A DNA stretch of 64,000 nucleotides, taken from contig CAUVXB020000002.1 of the NCBI GenBank assembly GCA_963555825.3, positions 1,568,001-1,632,000 on the forward strand. The letters run 5' to 3'. Each line of letters starts with the position of its first letter. Within the stretch, counting starts at the first letter, position 1. Shown piece after piece: positions 505-48,900 of this stretch. Source of the DNA: Alphaproteobacteria bacterium (lineage in GTDB: Bacteria > Pseudomonadota > Alphaproteobacteria > JAAXGF01). The notes under the pieces are model-generated. The model did no database searches. It was not told the DNA's origin and worked only from the letters and a program-made list of their open reading frames with translations. The position numbers and the translations under genes were made by a program.

Positions 505-1373
505 CGATCCCGGTGCATGCGGGCGTCGCCGCGCTGGTCGCGCCCTACGACGCGCTGCTGGTCGATCTCTGGGGCGTCATCCACGACGGCGTCGCGCCCT
601 ATCCCGGCGTCGTCGATTGCCTGGCCCGGCTGCGCGACGCCGGCAAGTCCGTCGTCATCCTGTCGAACGCGCCGCGCTTGGCCAAACACGCGGTCGCGCG
701 GCTGCGCGCCATCGGCGTCGAGGACGGGCTGTATGCGCACCTCGTCACCTCGGGCGACGCGACTCGCCAGGCACTCGCCGCGCGAACCGAGCCGTTCTAC
801 ACCGCACTCGGGCGCGGCTTTTACATGCTCGGCAAGCAGGCCGATGCCGACCTGATCGACGGCCTCGACTACCGCTCGGTCGCGGCGCTCTCGGACGCCG
901 AATTCCTGCTCGTCACCGGGCCGACCGAGCAATCGACGCGGCTCGAGGACTACCAGGGCCTGTTGGCCGAGGCGGCCGGTCTCGGTCTGCCGATGATCTG
1001 CGCCAACCCCGACCTCGTCGTCATCCGGGGCGGCGTGCGCGAGCCCTGCGCCGGCGCCTTCGCGGCGCGCTACGCCGAACTCGGCGGGGCGGTGCGCTAC
1101 GAAGGCAAGCCGCACCCGCTGGTCTATGACCTGTGCGACACGGCGCTCGGCGGCCTCGAGCGCAGCCGCGTGCTGGCGGTCGGCGACGGCCTCGCGACCG
1201 ATATTCTGGGCGCCCAACGCGCCGGCATCGACGCGCTGGTCGTGACCGGCGGCCTGCTCGCCGACGCCTGGGGCACGCCGCGCGAGGCGGCGCCCGACCC
1301 CGAACGCCTGGCCGCCGCCTGCGCCGAGGCCGGCGTCACGCCGGTCGCCGCGGTGCCGTCGTTCGTCTGGTAG
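501..1373 (+). CDS. HAD-superfamily subfamily IIA hydrolase (TIGR01459-like)
   Basis: [24 protein letters not shown] and [12 protein letters not shown] motifs. Confidence 0.9.
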
Positions 1374-1385
1374 CGCCGTTGGGCG

Positions 1386-1862
1386 CTAACCGGCGTCGCT
1401 CGTTTGCTCCTCGGCGTGTTTGTACATTTGCTCGAGCACCCTGGCGCGCGCCTCGACATTTCTGCGCGTGGCGGTCCTGTATGCGCTGATCACGGAGGCG
1501 AAATAGATGATCGCGCCAATGAACGAGCTGAGCCAGGAGGCGAGCAGGGCTTCTCCGTGCACGCCGCTCGTGTGAATCGAATAGACGTGGCTGAGGGCGA
1601 AGGGGATGGCGCCGCTGAACCCCAGCACCAGACACAGCACAAGCGCGAGTCCGCCGGCAATGAATTGCCGCAGGTCGAGCTGTCCGGCGCCCGCGACCAT
1701 AATCGCGAGCAGCAGCGCCATGGTCGGCGAGGCGGCCACGGCGCTTTCGAGCCGGACCAACAGCTCGGCGGCGCGCAGCGCCGTCTTCTCCTGCGCGCGG
1801 TCGAGCCCGCGCGCGGAAAGCCCCGACGCCATCGAAGATCGTCCCATACCCGAAGCAGTCAT
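1386..1862 (-). CDS. Hypothetical membrane protein (about 3 TM segments)
   Basis: 158-aa ORF with hydrophobic stretches, AGGA upstream, co-oriented with the TPR gene. Confidence 0.65.
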   Translation of the reverse strand: MTASGMGRSSMASGLSARGLDRAQEKTALRAAELLVRLESAVAASPTMALLLAIMVAGAGQLDLRQFIAGGLALVLCLVLGFSGAIPFALSHVYSIHTSGVHGEALLASWLSSFIGAIIYFASVISAYRTATRRNVEARARVLEQMYKHAEEQTSDAG

Positions 1863-1889
1863 CGCATCCTCCCTGTACGCGTATCGCCG

Positions 1890-3239
1890 TCAGTGCAACG
1901 TGGCCGCCGCCTCCGTGTAGCCGATGCGGGACGCGGGGTCGGCGAAGCCGGCGGCGGCGATGTCGGCGAGCACGATGGCCAGCACGTCGGCGCGGCCGAG
2001 CGCGCGGGCCGAATTGGCGAGCAACAGGAAGAACAGGTCGCGCTGGGCATGGCTGCCACCCATCTGCCACAGCATGCGCCGGACCGGCATCAGGAGATCG
2101 ACGACGCGCGCGTGATCGCCCTTGCGGTGGGCGATCGCCGCCTCGGCCGCGGGGATCGCGGCGACCGTGTAGCGCGGCCCCAGCGTACCTGAATCGGCGG
2201 CGGCGAAGTCGCGCATCGAGGCGAGCAGCGTCTCGGCCTCGTCGAAGCGGCCGGCGGCGGTCAGGATGGCGGCGTAATGCGGGCTGGTGAACGGGCTGGT
2301 GTGGTCGTCGAGGCGCTTGAGCGTGAGTTCGGCGAGCTCGTCCCAACGATCGCCGACTCGCGTGCCGCGCAGCTCGAGCCGGAGCAGCATCGAGGCCCCG
2401 TTCTGCATGTCGATGTAGAGGTCGGGCAACGATTGCGTCAGCGGCAGCTCGCGGTTGCGCACCCAGTTGTCGTAGCAGTCCAGGACGGCGTCGTGCTCGC
2501 CGAGTTCGAGGTGGAACAGGCAGCGGTGCCACCACAGGTGAAAGCTCATCTGGTTGGCGTCGGCCCAGTGGTCCTTGAGGCCGTCGAGCCAGGCGATGCC
2601 CTCGGCGTGGCGGCCCTCCATGATCAAGACATGGGCCACGGCATGGGCGCCCCAGACGTCTTCCGGATCGATCTCGACGGCGCGGCGGGCGAGCCGTTCG
2701 GCCTCGCCGAAACGGTGCGTCTCCTCGAGGTCGAAGGCGCGGCACGAGAGCTGGATGCCGTAGCTCGGGACGGCGTCGCTCCATGCGTCGGCCACGCGGT
2801 TCGAAATATCCGCCGACCAGGCCATCTCGCCGATCCAGAACAGCTCCATCTGGGCGAGCCGCTGGGCCAAGAGGTCGGTCGGATGGAGCCCGAGGATCGC
2901 CTCGTAGCGGGTGACCGATTGGGTGATGCGCCCGGCCGCGGCGTCGTCCAACGCGGCGACGTAGAGCCGCTCGCGTTCGGTCGCGCCGTCCCCGGCGGCG
3001 TGTGCCGCGGCGAGCGAACCCTCGATCATCGGCCGGAACGCGGTCGCCCGTGCGCCGTGCAGCACCAAGCCGTTGACCGCATGGGCCAGCGCGAAGCCCG
3101 CATCGGCCTCGAGCGCCCCCTTGAGGCCCGGCATGACCGCCGCCTTCCAGTGCACGAAGTTGTGGATCGCGCCATCGAGCGCGGCCGCCGCCTCGGCGCT
3201 CCCGGTGGTCATCGCGTACCCGCGCTTGTCGTGGTGCAT
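1890..3239 (-). CDS. Tetratricopeptide repeat protein 38 (TTC38)-like
   Basis: WGAHAVAHV, HLWWH and GGSHAQRD motifs; start set at MHHDKRG because the longer ORF runs into a repeat. Confidence 0.85.
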   Translation of the reverse strand: MHHDKRGYAMTTGSAEAAAALDGAIHNFVHWKAAVMPGLKGALEADAGFALAHAVNGLVLHGARATAFRPMIEGSLAAAHAAGDGATERERLYVAALDDAAAGRITQSVTRYEAILGLHPTDLLAQRLAQMELFWIGEMAWSADISNRVADAWSDAVPSYGIQLSCRAFDLEETHRFGEAERLARRAVEIDPEDVWGAHAVAHVLIMEGRHAEGIAWLDGLKDHWADANQMSFHLWWHRCLFHLELGEHDAVLDCYDNWVRNRELPLTQSLPDLYIDMQNGASMLLRLELRGTRVGDRWDELAELTLKRLDDHTSPFTSPHYAAILTAAGRFDEAETLLASMRDFAAADSGTLGPRYTVAAIPAAEAAIAHRKGDHARVVDLLMPVRRMLWQMGGSHAQRDLFFLLLANSARALGRADVLAIVLADIAAAGFADPASRIGYTEAAATLH

Positions 3240-3365
3240 GCTCAAGCCTCGTCCTCGACGTTCGGTCGCCGGACGATAGCACAGCCGCGTGCGCACTGGC
3301 GTGTTTGGGCTGCGCGGCCCCGACACGGCCGCCTTCGCTAGATCATCGAGCGAGGCTTGGATAGC

Positions 3366-3499
3366 GTCCCGGTTTGAAATTCTGCCGAAACGACACCCGA
3401 AACGTCGGCTCATCAGCGGATCATGTCTGCGTTGCACCCAACGGCGGACCCCGTCGCACGGTCCTCGGTACAGTCGCTCCTGACCCGAAGGAAACATTC
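3366..3499 (+). repeat. Palindromic repeat family A, copy 1
   Basis: Colinear with the reverse complement of 7875-8007; contains ATGTCTGCGTTGCACCCAACGGCGGAC and ends GACCCGAAGGAAACATTC. Confidence 0.75.
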
Positions 3500-3520
3500 G
3501 GGGCTCAACCTAACGCGTGG

Positions 3521-4951
3521 TCAGTTGGCGGCGATCAACTTGTAATAGGTATCCCAGGCCTGAGCCGAATCGAACTCGGCGTAGGCAGCATCGAGCCGTT
3601 GCCGCGAGTCTTCAAGCCGTTGTGCGAGCGCCTTCCGGTCGACGTCCAGCAGACACCCCGCGCGCTTGAGCGGACGGCCGGCGACGAAGACGCTGTCGAC
3701 GTCGCCGCCGTTGGCCTGAAGCACGGCGATCTGCTCGGGCTCGGCGCCCGACATCATGCCAATGCGGTCCGTCGATAACAGTACTACGTCGGCTTGCTTG
3801 CCAGGCGTCAGGCTGCCGATGCGGTCGTCCAGGCGGAGTGCCCGGGCGCCGCCCATGGTGGCGATCTCGAGCATGTCGCGGGCGGTCAGCGCGACGTCGG
3901 TCGGCCCGACGCCCTGGGCGTCCATCGTGCGGGCGCGCGAGCCGCGGCCGACCTTCAGTGTGAACTGCATGTGGCGGAATATGTCGCCCGACAGGCTGCC
4001 GACCGAATCGGCGCCGAGGCCGATCGTCACGCCGTGCTGGATCGCCCGCCAGGTCACTGGATCGGCGCCCTGGCCAAGTTCGCTTTCGGCCGAGACGGCG
4101 ATGCTGACGCCGGTCGCGGCCAGGCGGTCGAGTTCGGTATCGGTGAAGCACTGGCCATGCGAAATCACCAAGTCGGGACCAAGCATGCCATGACGGTCGA
4201 GGCGATCGATGAACCAGGACCCACCGTTAGGCGCCTCCATGCCGGCATGGGTCGTGATCGTCCGGACGCCCAGCTCGCGCGCCAGCCCCAGGTCGTGCTC
4301 TGTGCACGACCAGGGCAGATACTCCAGGTTGCGCGCCGTAACGCCCATGGTGACCAGACCGTCATCGTCCGAGAGCCGGCCGGCGCGAAGCCGCGTGGCT
4401 TCGGTGCGGTGCCAGTCCGTGGTCGGCGACAGGGCTTCCGACAGGGCTTCAGCGGCGATCGCGGTGCCATTTCCGAATTGCGGCGGGCCTCCCAGTCCGT
4501 AGCCAAACACCACCCTGACGCCCGTGGCATCGAGCGCGTCGAGGGCGGCGTCGGCGTGTCCCTCGGCGACGCTGCAGTCAGCGAAGTCGAGCACCGTCGT
4601 CACGCCGGCGTCGAGCGCGTCCAGCGCGCCGGCCAGGGTTGCGATGTGGCGGTCCTCGGCGCTATAGAGCTGGCGTCGGCCCCAGAACGTCTCGACCAGA
4701 TAGCTCGACCAAGTGCCGTCGGAGACGAAACCGCGCAACAGCGTCAACCAGAGGTGCCGGTGGGTGTCGATCAGTCCCGGCATGGCGATCATGCCCTCGC
4801 CATCGATGACCTCGGCGCCGTCCGCGGCAAGCTCAGGGCCGACCGCGGCGATGCGGTCGTCCTCGATCAGGATGTCGGCGCGCGGCAGCGTGCCGAGCGC
4901 GGGATCGACGGTGATGACACAAGCGTCACGGATTAGCATACGTGTCGTCAT
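3521..4951 (-). CDS. Amidohydrolase family protein (MTA/SAH deaminase-like)
   Basis: MPGLIDTHRH metal motif, GLGAD, IGSLTPGKQADVV. Confidence 0.9.
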   Translation of the reverse strand: MTTRMLIRDACVITVDPALGTLPRADILIEDDRIAAVGPELAADGAEVIDGEGMIAMPGLIDTHRHLWLTLLRGFVSDGTWSSYLVETFWGRRQLYSAEDRHIATLAGALDALDAGVTTVLDFADCSVAEGHADAALDALDATGVRVVFGYGLGGPPQFGNGTAIAAEALSEALSPTTDWHRTEATRLRAGRLSDDDGLVTMGVTARNLEYLPWSCTEHDLGLARELGVRTITTHAGMEAPNGGSWFIDRLDRHGMLGPDLVISHGQCFTDTELDRLAATGVSIAVSAESELGQGADPVTWRAIQHGVTIGLGADSVGSLSGDIFRHMQFTLKVGRGSRARTMDAQGVGPTDVALTARDMLEIATMGGARALRLDDRIGSLTPGKQADVVLLSTDRIGMMSGAEPEQIAVLQANGGDVDSVFVAGRPLKRAGCLLDVDRKALAQRLEDSRQRLDAAYAEFDSAQAWDTYYKLIAAN

Positions 4952-5128
4952 GGTTCAGCCCACTTGAGTACGGCAGCAAATCTCCAAACCGACATTCCCC
5001 TGCCGACTCCTCAGAATGCGCACGTCGGCAGCCGAAGATGGCGTCTTGGGGAGTATTGAAACGAGTTTCTGCCCACAGGGTAGAGGATTTGCAGCGAGAC
5101 TTGAATGTCCTGTGTGGATGGCTCCCGC

Positions 5129-5373
5129 GTTGCAAGGACTTTTTTCGGCGTAGCGACCTAGTCAGGTACAGTCTTGTGTCCGGCCTGTTGATGCAGTTTT
5201 GTTGAACCGCTGGCCCTGATGGTATCCGTGGATCGGGTCCCTATCTGCTTAGCGGGCTCGAACACCCAGGACATTGGTCGGGTTGTCCCGATCCCCGGTC
5301 TGACCGGTTCGCCATCACGTCTCGTCGTCCTTGCAATCGTCGAAAGGCGTTGTGCCTTCGAGAGATCAATTCG
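5129..5373 (-). ncRNA. Candidate bridge/seek RNA of the IS1111-type element
   Basis: Segments 5267-5275 and 5243-5249 match the two insertion junctions and flank a GGGTGTTCGAGCCC hairpin; transcript ends unknown. Confidence 0.7.
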
Positions 5374-6408
5374 TCATGCGGTCCCCTCAGTTGCGGGTCG
5401 GTGAGCGCGGTAGGCCTCGCCACGAGTCATGATGACCCAGGCGATCCGCGCGGCCTTGTTGGCCATGGCCACGGCGACCAGCTTGTTGGGCTTGCTTACC
5501 AGCAAGTTGGTGATCCAGGGGTGAACCTCGGGCTTGCGCCGTGCCGATTGAAGCTGTGATGTCATGCCGATCACCAGCAGACGGCGAAGATAGCGGTCCG
5601 CCATCTTGGAGATGCGTCCCATGCGATCCTTGCCGGCGCTGGAATCGGCCTTGGGCGTTAGCCCGAGCGAGGCGGCAAACTGGCGAGCCGATGTGAACCG
5701 GTGCGGATCGGTGACCGAGGCTGCCAGCGCCGAGGCGGTGATGTAACCAATCCCCGGAATGGTCGCGAGCCGTTTGGCCAGGTCGTTGCCGCGGAACCAG
5801 GTCTTGATCTCGCCCTCGATCATGGCGACCCGGGCTTGCAACTCGCGGATCTGCTCGGCCAGGGCAATGACGATCTTGCATGCCAGCGGGGGAATGTCCG
5901 GCACCACTCCTTCGACAAGCTGATCGACGAGCCTCAGCGCGTGATGAATGCCTTTGGCCAGCACGATGCCCAACTCGGCCAGCTGGGACCGGATCATGTT
6001 GACCAGCTGGGTGCGCTGGCCGACCAGCAGATCCCGTGTTCGGTGGAGCGCCAGGACCGATTGCTGCTCGGCCGACTTGATCGCGACGAACCGCATCGTG
6101 GGGCGCGTCACCGCCTCGCAGATCGCCTCCGCATCGGCGGCGTCGGTCTTGCCGCGCTTGACGTATGGTTTGACGTAGATCGGTGGCATCAATTTCACCT
6201 CGTGCCCCAATGCCTGGAGCTCGCGGGACCAGAAGTGGCTCGTGCCGCACGCCTCGATACCGATCAGACACGGTTCCAGCTTGCCGAAGAACGGCATCAT
6301 CTGGCGCCGGCGCAACGATCGGCGGACGATGACCTTGCCGGTGCTGTCAATGCCGTGGACTTGGAAAACGTTCTTGGCCAGATCGAGGCCGACAGTGGTT
6401 ACTTTCAT
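5374..6408 (-). CDS. IS110-family DEDD transposase/recombinase
   Basis: GLDLAKNVFQVHG, IEACG, KTDAADA, IPGIG and GLTP..SSAGK motifs. Confidence 0.95.
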   Translation of the reverse strand: MKVTTVGLDLAKNVFQVHGIDSTGKVIVRRSLRRRQMMPFFGKLEPCLIGIEACGTSHFWSRELQALGHEVKLMPPIYVKPYVKRGKTDAADAEAICEAVTRPTMRFVAIKSAEQQSVLALHRTRDLLVGQRTQLVNMIRSQLAELGIVLAKGIHHALRLVDQLVEGVVPDIPPLACKIVIALAEQIRELQARVAMIEGEIKTWFRGNDLAKRLATIPGIGYITASALAASVTDPHRFTSARQFAASLGLTPKADSSAGKDRMGRISKMADRYLRRLLVIGMTSQLQSARRKPEVHPWITNLLVSKPNKLVAVAMANKAARIAWVIMTRGEAYRAHRPATEGTA

Positions 6409-6490
6409 GGCGGATAGCTCCTCTTGCTCGTGGTTGATAACAACCACCACTTTGGCATCTCGGTGCCGGGAGCGGGAGCCATCCACCCCA

Positions 6491-6563
6491 TCTGCTAGTG
6501 GGGGCAAAGTGAAAGGTGTTTGGCGGCGGCCCCGACTCCTGGTGTCAGCCAATTCTGGACCTT
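6491..6563 (+). repeat. Palindromic repeat family A, copy 2 (its left part AATGTC lies at 5104-5109, split off by the IS)
   Basis: Rejoined site reads AATGTC(C/T)GCTAGTGGGGGCAAAGTGAAAG...GTCAGCCAATTCTGGACCTTC, the same two-unit layout as copy 1. Confidence 0.55.
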
Positions 6564-6641
6564 CACGTCTGGTCGTTAGACTCGCCTAGCCACGTTCCAT
6601 ATACTGCAGCCCACAACCAAAACGTTTCGGGGGAGGTTCTG

Positions 6642-7247
6642 GTGCCGCGACCGGGCATGCTGGTCCATCTCGTTGACGTGGCCAATCTGATCACTCTTGG
6701 CGGCCTCGCGCTTGCTTTCTTCGCCTGCTGGGCGGTCTTGTCGGGACGGCCCTCCTTGGCCATGGCCCTGGCCGCGTCGGCCGTCGTCATCGATAATGTG
6801 GACGGCTGGATGGCGCGGCGGGCAGTGGGGCGAAACCCGGCGCATGAGCATTTCGGGCGGCACTTGGATTGTTATGCGGACTACATCACCAAAGGCTTAT
6901 TTCCCGTCCTGTATCTTTTGACCGCGACCGATTTGCAGCTCGTGTCTGTCCCGGTGGCGCTGATCTACCTGATGGCGATTGCCGTCCGATATAGTTATGA
7001 GTTCGTGCCGGACCGCGCCCATATCGGTCTTTCGCCCGACTACATGATCGCCTTCCTCTGTCTGTTGCAGTTGGCGGCGCCACGAATCGGTTCGGCCTTC
7101 ATTCCCACGCTCATGGCGGGCCTGGTGGGTTTTGCGGCTCTCGCCGTCGCGCCTTTTCCGTCACCGAAGTTGCAGGGCGGGCCCCTCGTCGGTTTTTGCC
7201 TCTTTCTTCTGGTCCTGGCGGCGGTCCTTTTGACCGGCGATCGATAG
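6642..7247 (+). CDS. CDP-alcohol phosphatidyltransferase family protein
   Basis: ANLIT and DNVDGWMARR...FGRHLDCYAD signature; GGAGG before GTG. Confidence 0.85.
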   Translation: MPRPGMLVHLVDVANLITLGGLALAFFACWAVLSGRPSLAMALAASAVVIDNVDGWMARRAVGRNPAHEHFGRHLDCYADYITKGLFPVLYLLTATDLQLVSVPVALIYLMAIAVRYSYEFVPDRAHIGLSPDYMIAFLCLLQLAAPRIGSAFIPTLMAGLVGFAALAVAPFPSPKLQGGPLVGFCLFLLVLAAVLLTGDR

Positions 7248-7404
7248 CCTGCAAGCAGGGTTCGTTCTTTGTCACAGCTCCTTGGTCTTACTTGGAAAAG
7301 GCATCGGTCGGCCGCGTGGACCGACGCTGTAGCATCCGGGGCGTTAGATCGGCGAGCCACGCCGAAGGCACTCGACAGGCGATCATGGCCGCCCATCGAC
7401 TCTG

Positions 7405-7587
7405 CTACGCTTCGGTAAGCCAGCTTCCCCCGTTGCGCCAGGCCTCTTTGGCCTTGCAATGCGGGCAAATGCGCTCACCCGGCCAGTCGCTCATAAACAG
7501 CTCGCGGCACTTCAGGCACCGACGCCGCTCGATCTCGTGCTCGCGTTCGGGCTCTGGCTTCAGTTTGCTTTGACGTCGTGCGAACAT
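7405..7587 (-). CDS. Small putative zinc-finger protein (60 aa)
   Basis: CLKC...ICPHC pair of CxxC motifs. Confidence 0.65.
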   Translation of the reverse strand: MFARRQSKLKPEPEREHEIERRRCLKCRELFMSDWPGERICPHCKAKEAWRNGGSWLTEA

Positions 7588-7616
7588 GCTTATGGAAAGC
7601 GGCTTTCAAATCAGTC

Positions 7617-7784
7617 TCATCCCGAGCGCGTGGTGGCGGTTCCGCAGCGGCGACATTCCACCTTCTGCACTTGGCCACTTGCGCCAAAGGCGCCGACCAC
7701 CTCGATGAGACGGTAGTCGTGGAAGCCCAACCGGCAGAGAAGACGGCCAATCCAGTCGGGCAGCTTGTCGCGGCTTCCTGCCAC
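7617..7784 (-). CDS. Small Cys/His protein (about 55 aa)
   Basis: LLCRLGFH...CRRCG; AAGGA upstream of GTG. Confidence 0.6.
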   Translation of the reverse strand: MAGSRDKLPDWIGRLLCRLGFHDYRLIEVVGAFGASGQVQKVECRRCGTATTRSG

Positions 7785-7874
7785 GATCCGATTCCTTGAA
7801 CACAACCACTGTTAGGGTCCGACGCCCGCGCCGCCCATCCGGTTATCTTAGCACATCGCGCGGCAGGTTTCGCC

Positions 7875-8007
7875 AATGGCCGCCTCGGGTCGACAGCCGG
7901 AGTGCCGACGGCCCCGCGCCAAGGTCTGCCGTTGGGCGCAACGCAGACATGACCCGGCGAAAAGCGGACGTCCTGGGTGTCGGTTCGGCGGGATGCCAAA
8001 CCAGGAC
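7875..8007 (-). repeat. Palindromic repeat family A, copy 3 (inverted relative to copy 1)
   Basis: GGTCTGCCGTTGGGCGCAACGCAGACATGA matches the reverse complement of 3421-3450; similarity extends over ~130 bp. Confidence 0.75.
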
Positions 8008-8081
8008 TCCGGCCGAATTCGGTTGCATTCGCCGGCGTTGGTCGCGAGGATTCGGCCAGTGCAGTTTGCGGGGGTCGGCCC

Positions 8082-8933
8082 ATGACACCGGACGCCGCCG
8101 ATATCGTCGATACCGAGACCTACCCGGTCGATCGGCCGGGCACGCCGCGTTACGCGGCGATGATCGCCGACGTCCGCGCCGAACTCGGCGAGGTCGGCTG
8201 CGCGCCGCTCGCCGGCTTCGTGCGCGCGGACAGGGTCGGCGCGCTCATTGCCGAGGCCGACCGGGTGGCGCCACTGGCGCACCGCTCGTTCAACCGCACC
8301 AATGCCTATTTTTCCGAAGACGACCCGACGCTGCCCGCCAGCCACCCGCTGCGCCGCTTCTATGACCGCTCGAACGCCTTCGTGCCGGCCGACAACTTCG
8401 GCGCCGCGAGCCCCTTGCGCGCGATCTATCAGTGGGCGCCGTTCATGCCGTTCATCCGCGACGCGCTGGGCGGGGCGGAAATCCACCGCTACGCCGATCC
8501 GCTGGCCGATGTCATCATCAACGCGGTCGAGCCGGGCGGCGGCTTCCCCTGGCACTTCGACACTAACGACTACACGGTGACGCTGGCGATCCAGAACGCC
8601 GAGCGCGGCGGCCTGTTCGAATACCGCCCTAACTTGCGGACCGCCGAGGACGAGAACTACGACGGCGTCCAGGCGATCCTCGACGGCGGTCGCGACGGCG
8701 TCCGCTCGCTGGCGCTTCGGCCCGGCGATCTGCAGATCTTCAAGGGGCGCTTCTCGCTGCATCGGGTGTCGCCGACCGAGGGCGCGCGGCCGCGCTACGT
8801 CGGCATCTATTCCTTCGTCGACGCGCCCGGCATGGTCGGCCGCGTCGAGCGCACCCGCCAACTCTACGGCCGCGTCCTGCCGATCCACCGCGACCGCGAT
8901 GCGGCGGCACGCGCCGACGGGCTGCGGGACTGA
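8082..8933 (+). CDS. Fe(II)/2-oxoglutarate oxygenase, BesD/HalD-like family
   Basis: WHFD and LHRVS facial-triad motifs, GGLFEY, PGDLQIFKGR. Confidence 0.75.
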   Translation: MTPDAADIVDTETYPVDRPGTPRYAAMIADVRAELGEVGCAPLAGFVRADRVGALIAEADRVAPLAHRSFNRTNAYFSEDDPTLPASHPLRRFYDRSNAFVPADNFGAASPLRAIYQWAPFMPFIRDALGGAEIHRYADPLADVIINAVEPGGGFPWHFDTNDYTVTLAIQNAERGGLFEYRPNLRTAEDENYDGVQAILDGGRDGVRSLALRPGDLQIFKGRFSLHRVSPTEGARPRYVGIYSFVDAPGMVGRVERTRQLYGRVLPIHRDRDAAARADGLRD

Positions 8934-48204: not shown

Positions 48205-48900
48205 ATGAGACGCCTCGTGCTTGTCGCGGCGCTGGGCCTGTATTTTCCGGGCGTGGCATTCGGGCTGAGCTGCGCGCGGCCGAGCCTGGACGAAACCGCC
48301 ATCGATGCCGCCATCATGATATTCGAGGGGACCGCGGGTCCGAAACGCTCACTCGATCTTCGCGAAAAAGAGGCCGTCCGACTGTACGCCATCGAAGCCA
48401 TATTTGACAGTGCCGAGGACCTGAAGGTCTACGGTTTCACGGTGACGCAGGGCTGGAAAGGAGCGACGACGGGGCAGAGCATCGATGTCCTCTTCAACAG
48501 CTATTGGGGAGACGGTTTTGCCGAGGGCGAAACCTACCTCGTGGTCAGCCCGCGTCAGGTTGGAAATCTCTTCTGGGCGCCGCTTTGCGGCCACACTATC
48601 GATATGAGACACGCCACCGATATCGGCAATCTCGCCATGCTTGAGCGGCTGATCGGTATCGGCCAACACATGAAGGTCGGTATGGAGGACCGCGTCTGCC
48701 GGCGTGCCGAAGACTGCACCTCGGTGCAGACCCACTGCGGCGGGTGCAGCTGCGGCACGCCGGTGGCCACGATAGCGGCCGAACGCTACGAGGCGCGGTT
48801 CGAAAGGCTGTGCGCCGCCATACGAATTGCCGAGCGTTGCGAGATGAATTGCCCGCCTCCCGCGTCATCCTGCACGGCGGGATTTTGCGTGGCCGAGTAA
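48205..48900 (+). CDS. Secreted Cys-rich protein (TIMP/NTR-like N-terminal part plus Cys-rich tail)
   Basis: Signal peptide then LSC; C-terminal CGGCSCG...C...C..GFC. Confidence 0.7.
   Translation: MRRLVLVAALGLYFPGVAFGLSCARPSLDETAIDAAIMIFEGTAGPKRSLDLREKEAVRLYAIEAIFDSAEDLKVYGFTVTQGWKGATTGQSIDVLFNSYWGDGFAEGETYLVVSPRQVGNLFWAPLCGHTIDMRHATDIGNLAMLERLIGIGQHMKVGMEDRVCRRAEDCTSVQTHCGGCSCGTPVATIAAERYEARFERLCAAIRIAERCEMNCPPPASSCTAGFCVAE

Follow-up and report, generated by a model that had tools for sequence, protein, structure and literature searches.

The inverted repeat pair at positions 3366-8007 of a 64-kb window of alphaproteobacterial DNA (the whole stretch analysed here) consists of two copies of a long transposon end, which we call the left-type end or LE. 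Together with a differently built partner end, RE, it very probably makes up the two ends of a non-autonomous transposon family, namely mobile insertion cassettes from a passenger-carrying group of the IS1 family. Mobile insertion cassettes (MICs), as outlined in PMC3129680 and PMC4337579, are passenger genes held between inverted repeats of the insertion sequence (IS) type, devoid of a transposase and movable by a related element. The system is a known kind of mobile element and not a new recombination system. The source genome, labelled G000, comprises 6.04 Mb at 65% GC in two contigs, C1 and C2, and the window is C2:1568001-1632000; coordinates given below without a contig are those of the window.

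A repeat search recovered two inverted arms of 123 nt (3366-3488 and 7885-8007) that are 74% complementary, and MAFFT alignment of 3350-3510 on the plus strand with 7865-8025 on the minus strand gave a mean column identity of 82%, so that the inverted repeat of about 130 bp described in an earlier note on this DNA is real. Its likeness exceeds chance by a wide margin, and by iterated nhmmer the pair was expanded into a family of 30 matches in G000, each about 135 nt long, intergenic and 75-92% alike. The family has a clear polarity, in that the end beginning GTGTC lies 1-143 nt from a gene boundary, and inner flanks are poorer in GC than outer ones (59.1% versus 67.5%; Wilcoxon p=1.2e-4, n=20). 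The DNA beyond the inner end is also rich in insertion sequences, which, together with its low GC, suggested that LE is the edge of inserted DNA.

Eight of the 41 genomes searched carry LE, at identities of up to 89%: G000 itself, five of 12 other genomes of its family and order, and two from other families of the class. In the relatives, bin contigs often break at LE. An exact-pattern scan of 185,579 species genomes returned two bins only, labelled Proteobacteria and Alphaproteobacteria bacterium, and a plasmid collection yielded no LE match. LE positions are not conserved between genomes, since none of the ten genes flanking LE copies in relatives that have a match in G000 has its counterpart within 6 kb of an LE there.

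The partner end emerged from a model of the first 50 nt of LE, which also matched short inverted copies 1-9 kb inward of several LE. RE is about 118 nt long, has 23 matches in G000 and shares with LE only the outer 22-26 nt, in inverted orientation. An inverted RE stands on the inner side, within 15 kb, of 16 of 29 LE, with 14 different RE in use, and on the wrong side in a single case; in 2000 trials with randomly placed RE, such pairs averaged 0.96 and never exceeded 6. The resulting units, at least 14 in G000, span 0.75-12 kb.

Target duplications point the same way. The 8-mers four bases outside GTGTC, compared between the two ends of ten G000 units and of one unit from another genus (G007), agreed at 8, 6, 5, 6, 6, 3, 8, 6, 6, 3 and 7 of 8 positions, a mean of 5.8, with the full 8/8 duplication in two of the 11 units. 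Mis-paired flanks gave 3.1 +/- 0.34, the maximum over 1813 derangements being 4.09. Across a grid of offsets, only pairs adding up to 8 formed a ridge, which was highest at 4 and 4. A unit accordingly starts four bases ahead of GTGTC and generates an 8-bp duplication that has since decayed in most copies. The earlier proposal that the repeats bound mobile units of accessory genes was right.

The cargo was surveyed by running Pfam on the single-copy open reading frames (ORFs) of 14 units, 27 ORFs altogether. It is unrelated between units and lies in either orientation, and includes RidA-like, AA_synth, Sel1/TPR, GFA and alpha/beta-hydrolase proteins, a glyoxalase with a zinc alcohol dehydrogenase, methyltransferases, an FAD oxidoreductase, an adenylate cyclase-AAA-TPR (STAND) protein, a LysR-TRAP-PrpD operon, a nitroreductase, a KAP NTPase and a NACHT-LRR protein. 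No genes common to the units were seen except insertion sequences of 5 to 83 copies, and none of the 14 has a transposase of its own. G000 has a very heavy IS load: at an identity of at least 95%, the insertion sequences to which cassette ORFs belong number 5 to 83 copies, among them families with 69-72, 83, 36 and 34 copies. Likewise, no small ORFs shared downstream of LE were found besides insertion sequences and duplicated segments.

A comparison of filled and empty sites is available from G007. Two of its genes are separated by 2,024 bp, whereas the corresponding orthologues in G000 (78% and 62% identical) have 235 bp and no repeat between them. The gap in G007 is taken up by a 1.9-kb unit made of LE, one ORF and an inverted RE (83% mean column identity to RE), with a GC content of 0.46-0.60 versus 0.67-0.76 in the flanks. 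The mobility of the units has the support of this one filled/empty comparison. The ORF of this unit (L046 10863-12771) encodes a DACNV sensor domain (E=4e-17) and has a weak diadenylate cyclase match, and may be a signalling or defence gene.

The link to a transposase comes from the terminus. A metagenome scan with a 19-position terminus pattern gave at least 127 matches in at least 120 loci. Among the 127 matches listed, the four bases outside the pattern are GGTA in 93 and start with GG in about 117, from which we take the complete terminus to be GGTAGTGTCTCAGTTTGAAATT, 22 nt beginning GGTAGTG. Two metagenome contigs, L102 (7-3270) and L106 (2331-5629), hold both termini about 3.2 kb apart around a DDE transposase of 296 aa (324 aa in the longest frame of L106), whose stop codon lies inside the terminus. 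Complete transposase-bearing copies, each about 3.2 kb, are also present in the relatives G003 and G018, and the G018 copy has a perfect 8-bp duplication. The transposase has at least 8000 relatives, and those at 73-79% identity are named "IS1 family transposase" by their sources; no solved structure matched it. Ends of the form GGnnnTG with duplications of 8-9 bp are given as features of the IS1 family (PMC10425158, PMC6807381), a signature that the GGTAGTG terminus and the 8-bp duplications fit, and GGnnnTG ends are described as common in IS6/IS26 as well (PMC6807381). The transposase profile has matches in seven other genomes: G003 (8), G018 (7), G029 (5), G023 (3), G004 (1), G008 (1) and G007, which holds LE..RE units plus one full-length transposase copy. 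The passengers of L102 and L106, a HigB-like toxin gene, a helix-turn-helix and peptidase M78 gene and an ORF without known likeness, would from their predicted products be an addiction module riding on the IS. A derivation of RE from the 3' coding end of the transposase was considered and found no support, blastx giving nothing better than E=0.04.

Several results weigh against this assignment. No transposase-bearing copy has LE or RE subterminal sequence, and among the 120 loci listed none matches LE and three match RE weakly or in part; the link to the transposase therefore rests on the 22-nt terminus and the length of the duplication. The best NCBIfam model for the transposase, transpos_IS1, scores 54 bits versus a cut-off of 100 (IS6 follows at 28 bits), and Pfam DDE_Tnp_IS1 scores 22 versus 24.1 bits. 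Three of the four complete transposase-bearing copies inspected (L102, L106 and G003) have no target duplication. G000 holds no homologue of the transposase, either by tblastn (E<=1e-3) or by a profile of eight transposases (0 of 58 scored candidates), so that movement there is probably impossible now. Thirteen of the 29 LE have no RE, the window pair has neither RE nor duplication, and the filled/empty comparison is one case, between genera, in which the intergenic DNA itself cannot be aligned. Finally, ends up to 86-92% alike flank unrelated cargo, and their likeness breaks off sharply at one fixed base in all copies; simple transposition does not account for this.

A unit is ordered as the 22-nt terminal inverted repeat, the LE subterminal part, one or more unrelated passenger genes, the RE subterminal part and an inverted copy of the 22-nt repeat. 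As we picture its movement, both termini would be bound and cut by a DDE transposase acting in trans, which would insert the unit elsewhere, and repair of the staggered cut would leave the 8-bp target duplication. We infer that the units were moved by the transposase of the IS1-type relatives, and the long subterminal stretches of LE and RE are presumably needed in cis.

The transposase-bearing relatives belong, as we take it, to a named subgroup of the passenger-carrying insertion sequences called transporter insertion sequences (tIS), which were reportedly defined by Siguier et al. 2009. In tIS of the IS1 and IS1595 families, as PMC3129680 and PMC7986276 outline them, passengers sit between the left end and the transposase, an arrangement that the L102, L106, G003 and G018 copies fit. 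The units of G000 differ from tIS in carrying no transposase, and resemble MICs such as MIC231 of Bacillus cereus and the TnXax1-flanked MICs of Xanthomonas in their IS-type ends, passengers, lack of a transposase, duplications and expected mobilisation in trans. They depart from these MICs in several ways: the parent is of the IS1 family rather than IS231 (IS4 family) or Tn3; the duplications are 8 bp rather than the 5 bp of the Xanthomonas MICs; LE and RE, at about 135 and 118 nt, are long ends that are unlike each other inward of the common 22 nt; and the host genome is without any cognate transposase. Tn3-derived miniature elements, suggested by a likeness of the first bases to a Tn3-family repeat, were also considered and set aside, with no PF01526 match in G000 and duplications of 8 and not 5 bp. 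A literature search made without ISfinder or paper supplements found no description of the LE/RE family.

Within the window itself (Table 1), the two LE copies face outward around 4.5 kb and are the sole LE/LE pair among the 29 LE. Both tips are degenerate. Copy 1 has its outer terminus at 3360, where it reads GATAGCGTCCCGGTTTGAAATT, starting GATAGCG with GA in place of the family's GG, and its inner edge (...AAACATT) at 3498. Copy 2, whose terminus at 8013 reads GCCGGAGTCCTGGTTTGGCATC and starts GCCGGAG, is more degenerate, with about 9 of 22 positions differing. No RE was found by nhmmer --max over 3000-8600, and no target duplication at any offset, the best agreement being 4/8. The remainder of the 64 kb held nothing below E=0.69 with the LE model, 0.074 with the RE model or 1 with the terminus model. 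No empty site could be found for the window unit, as the homologues of its flanking genes in relatives sit on different contigs and are only 28-43% identical. Given the missing RE and duplication and the degenerate tips, we read the pair as a relic, the immobile wreckage of one or two cassettes. A cassette array, as the earlier note had it, is not what the window holds, which is just two outward-facing LE.

Table 1. Cassette ends, insertion sequence and genes in and beside the repeat pair (positions in the window)
Feature	Position	Strand	Evidence
LE copy 1 (long left-type cassette end)	3360-3498	+	nhmmer 3366-3496, model positions 3-133, E=2e-34; terminus model 3358-3405, E=3e-14
LE copy 2 (inverted)	8013-7875	-	nhmmer 8008-7876, model positions 2-134, E=2.5e-27; terminus model 8014-7968, E=2e-8
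Amidohydrolase gene, cargo adjoining LE copy 1	3521-4951	-	Pfam Amidohydro_1, E=7.8e-30
IS110-family insertion sequence, 1,393 bp	5104-6496	-	Pfam DEDD_Tnp_IS110 and Transposase_20; transposase coding sequence ~5374-6408(-)
CDP-alcohol phosphatidyltransferase gene, cargo on LE copy 2 side	6516-7247	+	Pfam CDP-OH_P_transf, E=4.9e-8
Two small Cys-rich ORFs, cargo nearest LE copy 2	7405-7587 and 7606-7809	-	ORF list; no Pfam family
Left flanking gene, outside the pair	1890-3300	-	ORF list; high GC3 frame
Right flanking gene, HalD-like, outside the pair	8016-8933	+	Pfam HalD, E=3.8e-9; paralogues and homologues at 28-42% identity

A different account of the same pair, which we consider unlikely, is that it forms one working LE-cargo-LE composite that can still move. 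Outward termini do bracket the 4.5 kb, and two LE are formally valid ends, since the terminal 22 nt are common to LE and RE. The absent duplication and degenerate tips argue against it, as do the uniqueness of the LE/LE arrangement, the lack of a transposase in the genome and the differing GC of the two halves: the left half with the amidohydrolase gene is genome-like at 0.66-0.71, the right half with the CDP-alcohol transferase gene and the small Cys-rich ORFs is at 0.59-0.63, and a dip to 0.55 adjoins the IS110 element. We infer instead that two decayed cassettes, one with the amidohydrolase gene and the other with the CDP-alcohol transferase gene and the two small ORFs, meet tail to tail in the window and have lost their RE ends at the present IS110 site; a single LE/LE composite is less likely than this.

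A third related site had been proposed between the two repeats, composed of 5104-5109 and 6491-6563. It dissolves into the IS110-family element: 5104-5109 (AATGTC) are the first six bases of that element and 6491-6496 its last, so that the supposed site joins the left end of the IS to DNA at its right end and to unrelated DNA beyond. The rule that cargo starts after GACATT and ends before AATGTC does not hold up: it mixes the inner edge of LE with the left end of the IS110 element. No LE, RE or terminus match above noise occurs in 4900-6700 (nhmmer --max on 3000-8600, E up to 20). The element has exact 15-nt subterminal inverted repeats at 5114-5128 and 6472-6486 (100%), and is present in five copies at 99-100% identity on C2, with fragments on C1; the flanks are unrelated at every copy, and no common target is seen in those of the five. 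Insertion of the IS110 element into a third LE copy was rejected for the window, as the flanks of the five copies are without likeness to LE and no model match adjoins the copy in the window. We read the IS110 element as inserted later, between the two window cassettes. Nor did the recurrence of such sites reported around 48205-48900 survive, that region being inside an open reading frame with no notable repeat and no family match.

Elsewhere in the genome, IS110-type elements do touch cassette ends. In 5 of 12 cases the right end of such an element borders directly on the inner edge of RE (C2:2452987, 530212, 1067014 and 2722962 / 3616756); a single duplicated segment accounts for two of these five. 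Of six elements belonging to a second IS110 type, three occupy one common RE position (...CCACCCCAT|TAYACCYGGACTC), and the other three have look-alike flanks. This placement suggests that the elements target cassette ends in a sequence-guided manner.

One could therefore imagine LE and RE as docking modules of a cassette exchange, in which cargo is swapped site-specifically at the inner edges, possibly by the RNA-guided IS110-type recombinases, and an IS1-type transposase moves the loaded cassette. The idea draws on the unrelated genes inside ends that are about 90% alike, the fixed base at which homology stops, the correlated identities of LE and RE across units (Spearman 0.62, 45 pairs) and the IS110 elements of one type lying at the RE inner edge in three of six cases. 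We regard it as distinctly unlikely; if true, it would amount to a two-enzyme, integron-like economy of genes.

The recombination or capture sites proposed in the earlier note would be worked by a site-specific recombinase (of the tyrosine, serine or HUH class) through their hairpin folds, as happens at attC; this reading is very improbable. Like integron cassettes, the units hold one or a few promoter-poor accessory genes of diverse kinds with a conserved element of 60-140 nt, and their sharp inner edges and ends about 90% alike around unrelated genes would suit such a process; the genome also has 38 weak tyrosine recombinase matches and three Y1_Tnp genes. An integron cassette, however, has one attC, while the units here have two unlike ends with terminal inverted repeats, are dispersed and not arrayed and, as the note itself remarked, lack R boxes. 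Integrons have IntI, and G000 has no integron integrase at cut-off (TIGR02249, best 79 versus 265 bits), in agreement with the note's own view that these are not attC sites. Its expectation that the enzyme lay outside the window was also correct, the enzyme being absent from the entire genome by tblastn and profile. Above all, 8-bp duplications flank the units, whereas site-specific recombination makes none, and the ends are terminal inverted repeats common to elements that bear a DDE transposase. What had been taken for hairpin recombination sites are thus long DDE-type transposon ends.

The folding of LE speaks to the same point. One central hairpin (GTCTGCGTTG-loop-CRAC-GCAGAC) recurs in the LE copies and is the single hairpin that does so; the earlier description of each site as a set of imperfect hairpins was not confirmed. 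As a whole, the element folds no better than shuffled sequence (z -1.10 to +1.10, 8 folds), and RNAalifold finds hardly any conserved pairing, at -3.8 kcal/mol with 9 pairs. The Y1_Tnp (IS200/RAYT-type) matches lie at C2:1867017 (64 bits), C1:1325246 (43 bits) and C2:2727747 (26 bits), none of them flanked by LE: there is no LE within 5 kb of the first two, and the third, at just 26 bits, is 2.6 kb from a copy.

It is scarcely credible that LE serves the host as a structural, regulatory or RNA element, in the manner of REP/BIME, ERIC or RIME intergenic repeats, and just tends to stand beside variable DNA. Its size of about 135 nt, its 30 dispersed intergenic copies, their presence in other genera, the short distance of the outer end from gene ends and the insertion of IS110-type elements beside RE, as at REP sequences (PMC1525189, PMC12288879), all recall these repeats, but LE has no Rfam family, conserved structure or codon pattern, its neighbour genes are unrelated (ffh and aroQ among them), and its positions are not orthologous between genera. 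RE pairing and target duplications would not be expected of such repeats, and LE on its own has no duplication. LE and RE further differ from REP, BIME, ERIC and RIME in forming ordered pairs around cargo and in having no RAYT-type gene beside them.

Four other identities were examined for LE and rejected. As a structured RNA or riboswitch, it had no consensus fold and, at the gathering score, no Rfam match within the window; six copies gave a single match, at chance level. As a small protein gene, it offered an open frame of about 43 codons in the majority of copies, yet stops or frameshifts interrupt this frame in several, and column entropy by phase (0.62, 0.72, 0.72) shows no third-position relaxation. 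As a regulon element, it adjoined unrelated genes, including ffh, aroQ, a glutamine synthetase homologue and two mttB paralogues. As a stand-alone miniature inverted-repeat transposable element, it had no duplication around solo copies (n=6; at most 3.3/8).

The genes around the window pair and at other cassette loci offer further observations. A stretch of 502 nt (~7346-7847) that includes both Cys-rich ORFs has an 88% identical copy at C1:2241310-2241811 with no LE beside it, the homology beginning 29 nt from the inner edge of LE copy 2. On the left, two long frames overlap on the minus strand (1336-3282 and 1890-3497), and gene-like GC3 is found only in the second; the start of the left flanking gene is uncertain because its longest frame, 1890-3497, crosses LE. 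Five of 12 family relatives have homologues of this gene at 36-43% identity. A 146-nt piece of it (3046-3188; residues 47-81, 86% protein identity) recurs inside another cassette at C2:2723656-2723799 and in the duplicate at 3615919-3616062, a sign of past rearrangement between cassette loci. Around the former lies a pile-up of ends (C2:2721526-2725100), in which a partial RE(+), an IS110 copy and a full RE(-) whose terminus overlaps a 5'-truncated LE(+) are followed by a cassette with glyoxalase and alcohol dehydrogenase genes that ends in RE; the pile-up is partly duplicated, inverted, at C2:3615800-3618200. At C2:204355-208465, two tandem mttB paralogues (80% identical DNA) are followed, the first by a complete 0.75-kb RidA-like cassette and the second by a solo LE, and a third mttB paralogue on C1 has neither cassette nor LE.

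Annotation pipelines rarely record mobile insertion cassettes, and here at least 14 of them, with different cargo, are found in one genome of a barely known alphaproteobacterial order. Some of the low-GC "junk" next to ffh, aroQ and other core genes is accounted for by the cassettes, and the 22-nt terminus, LE and RE together are a ready marker with which related metagenome bins can be searched for transferred genes. When a dispersed repeat resembles a hairpin site, seeking its differently built partner end can resolve it. For the organism, the cassettes mark the arrival sites of accessory genes, ranging from small enzymes to a transporter operon and STAND/NACHT-type proteins.

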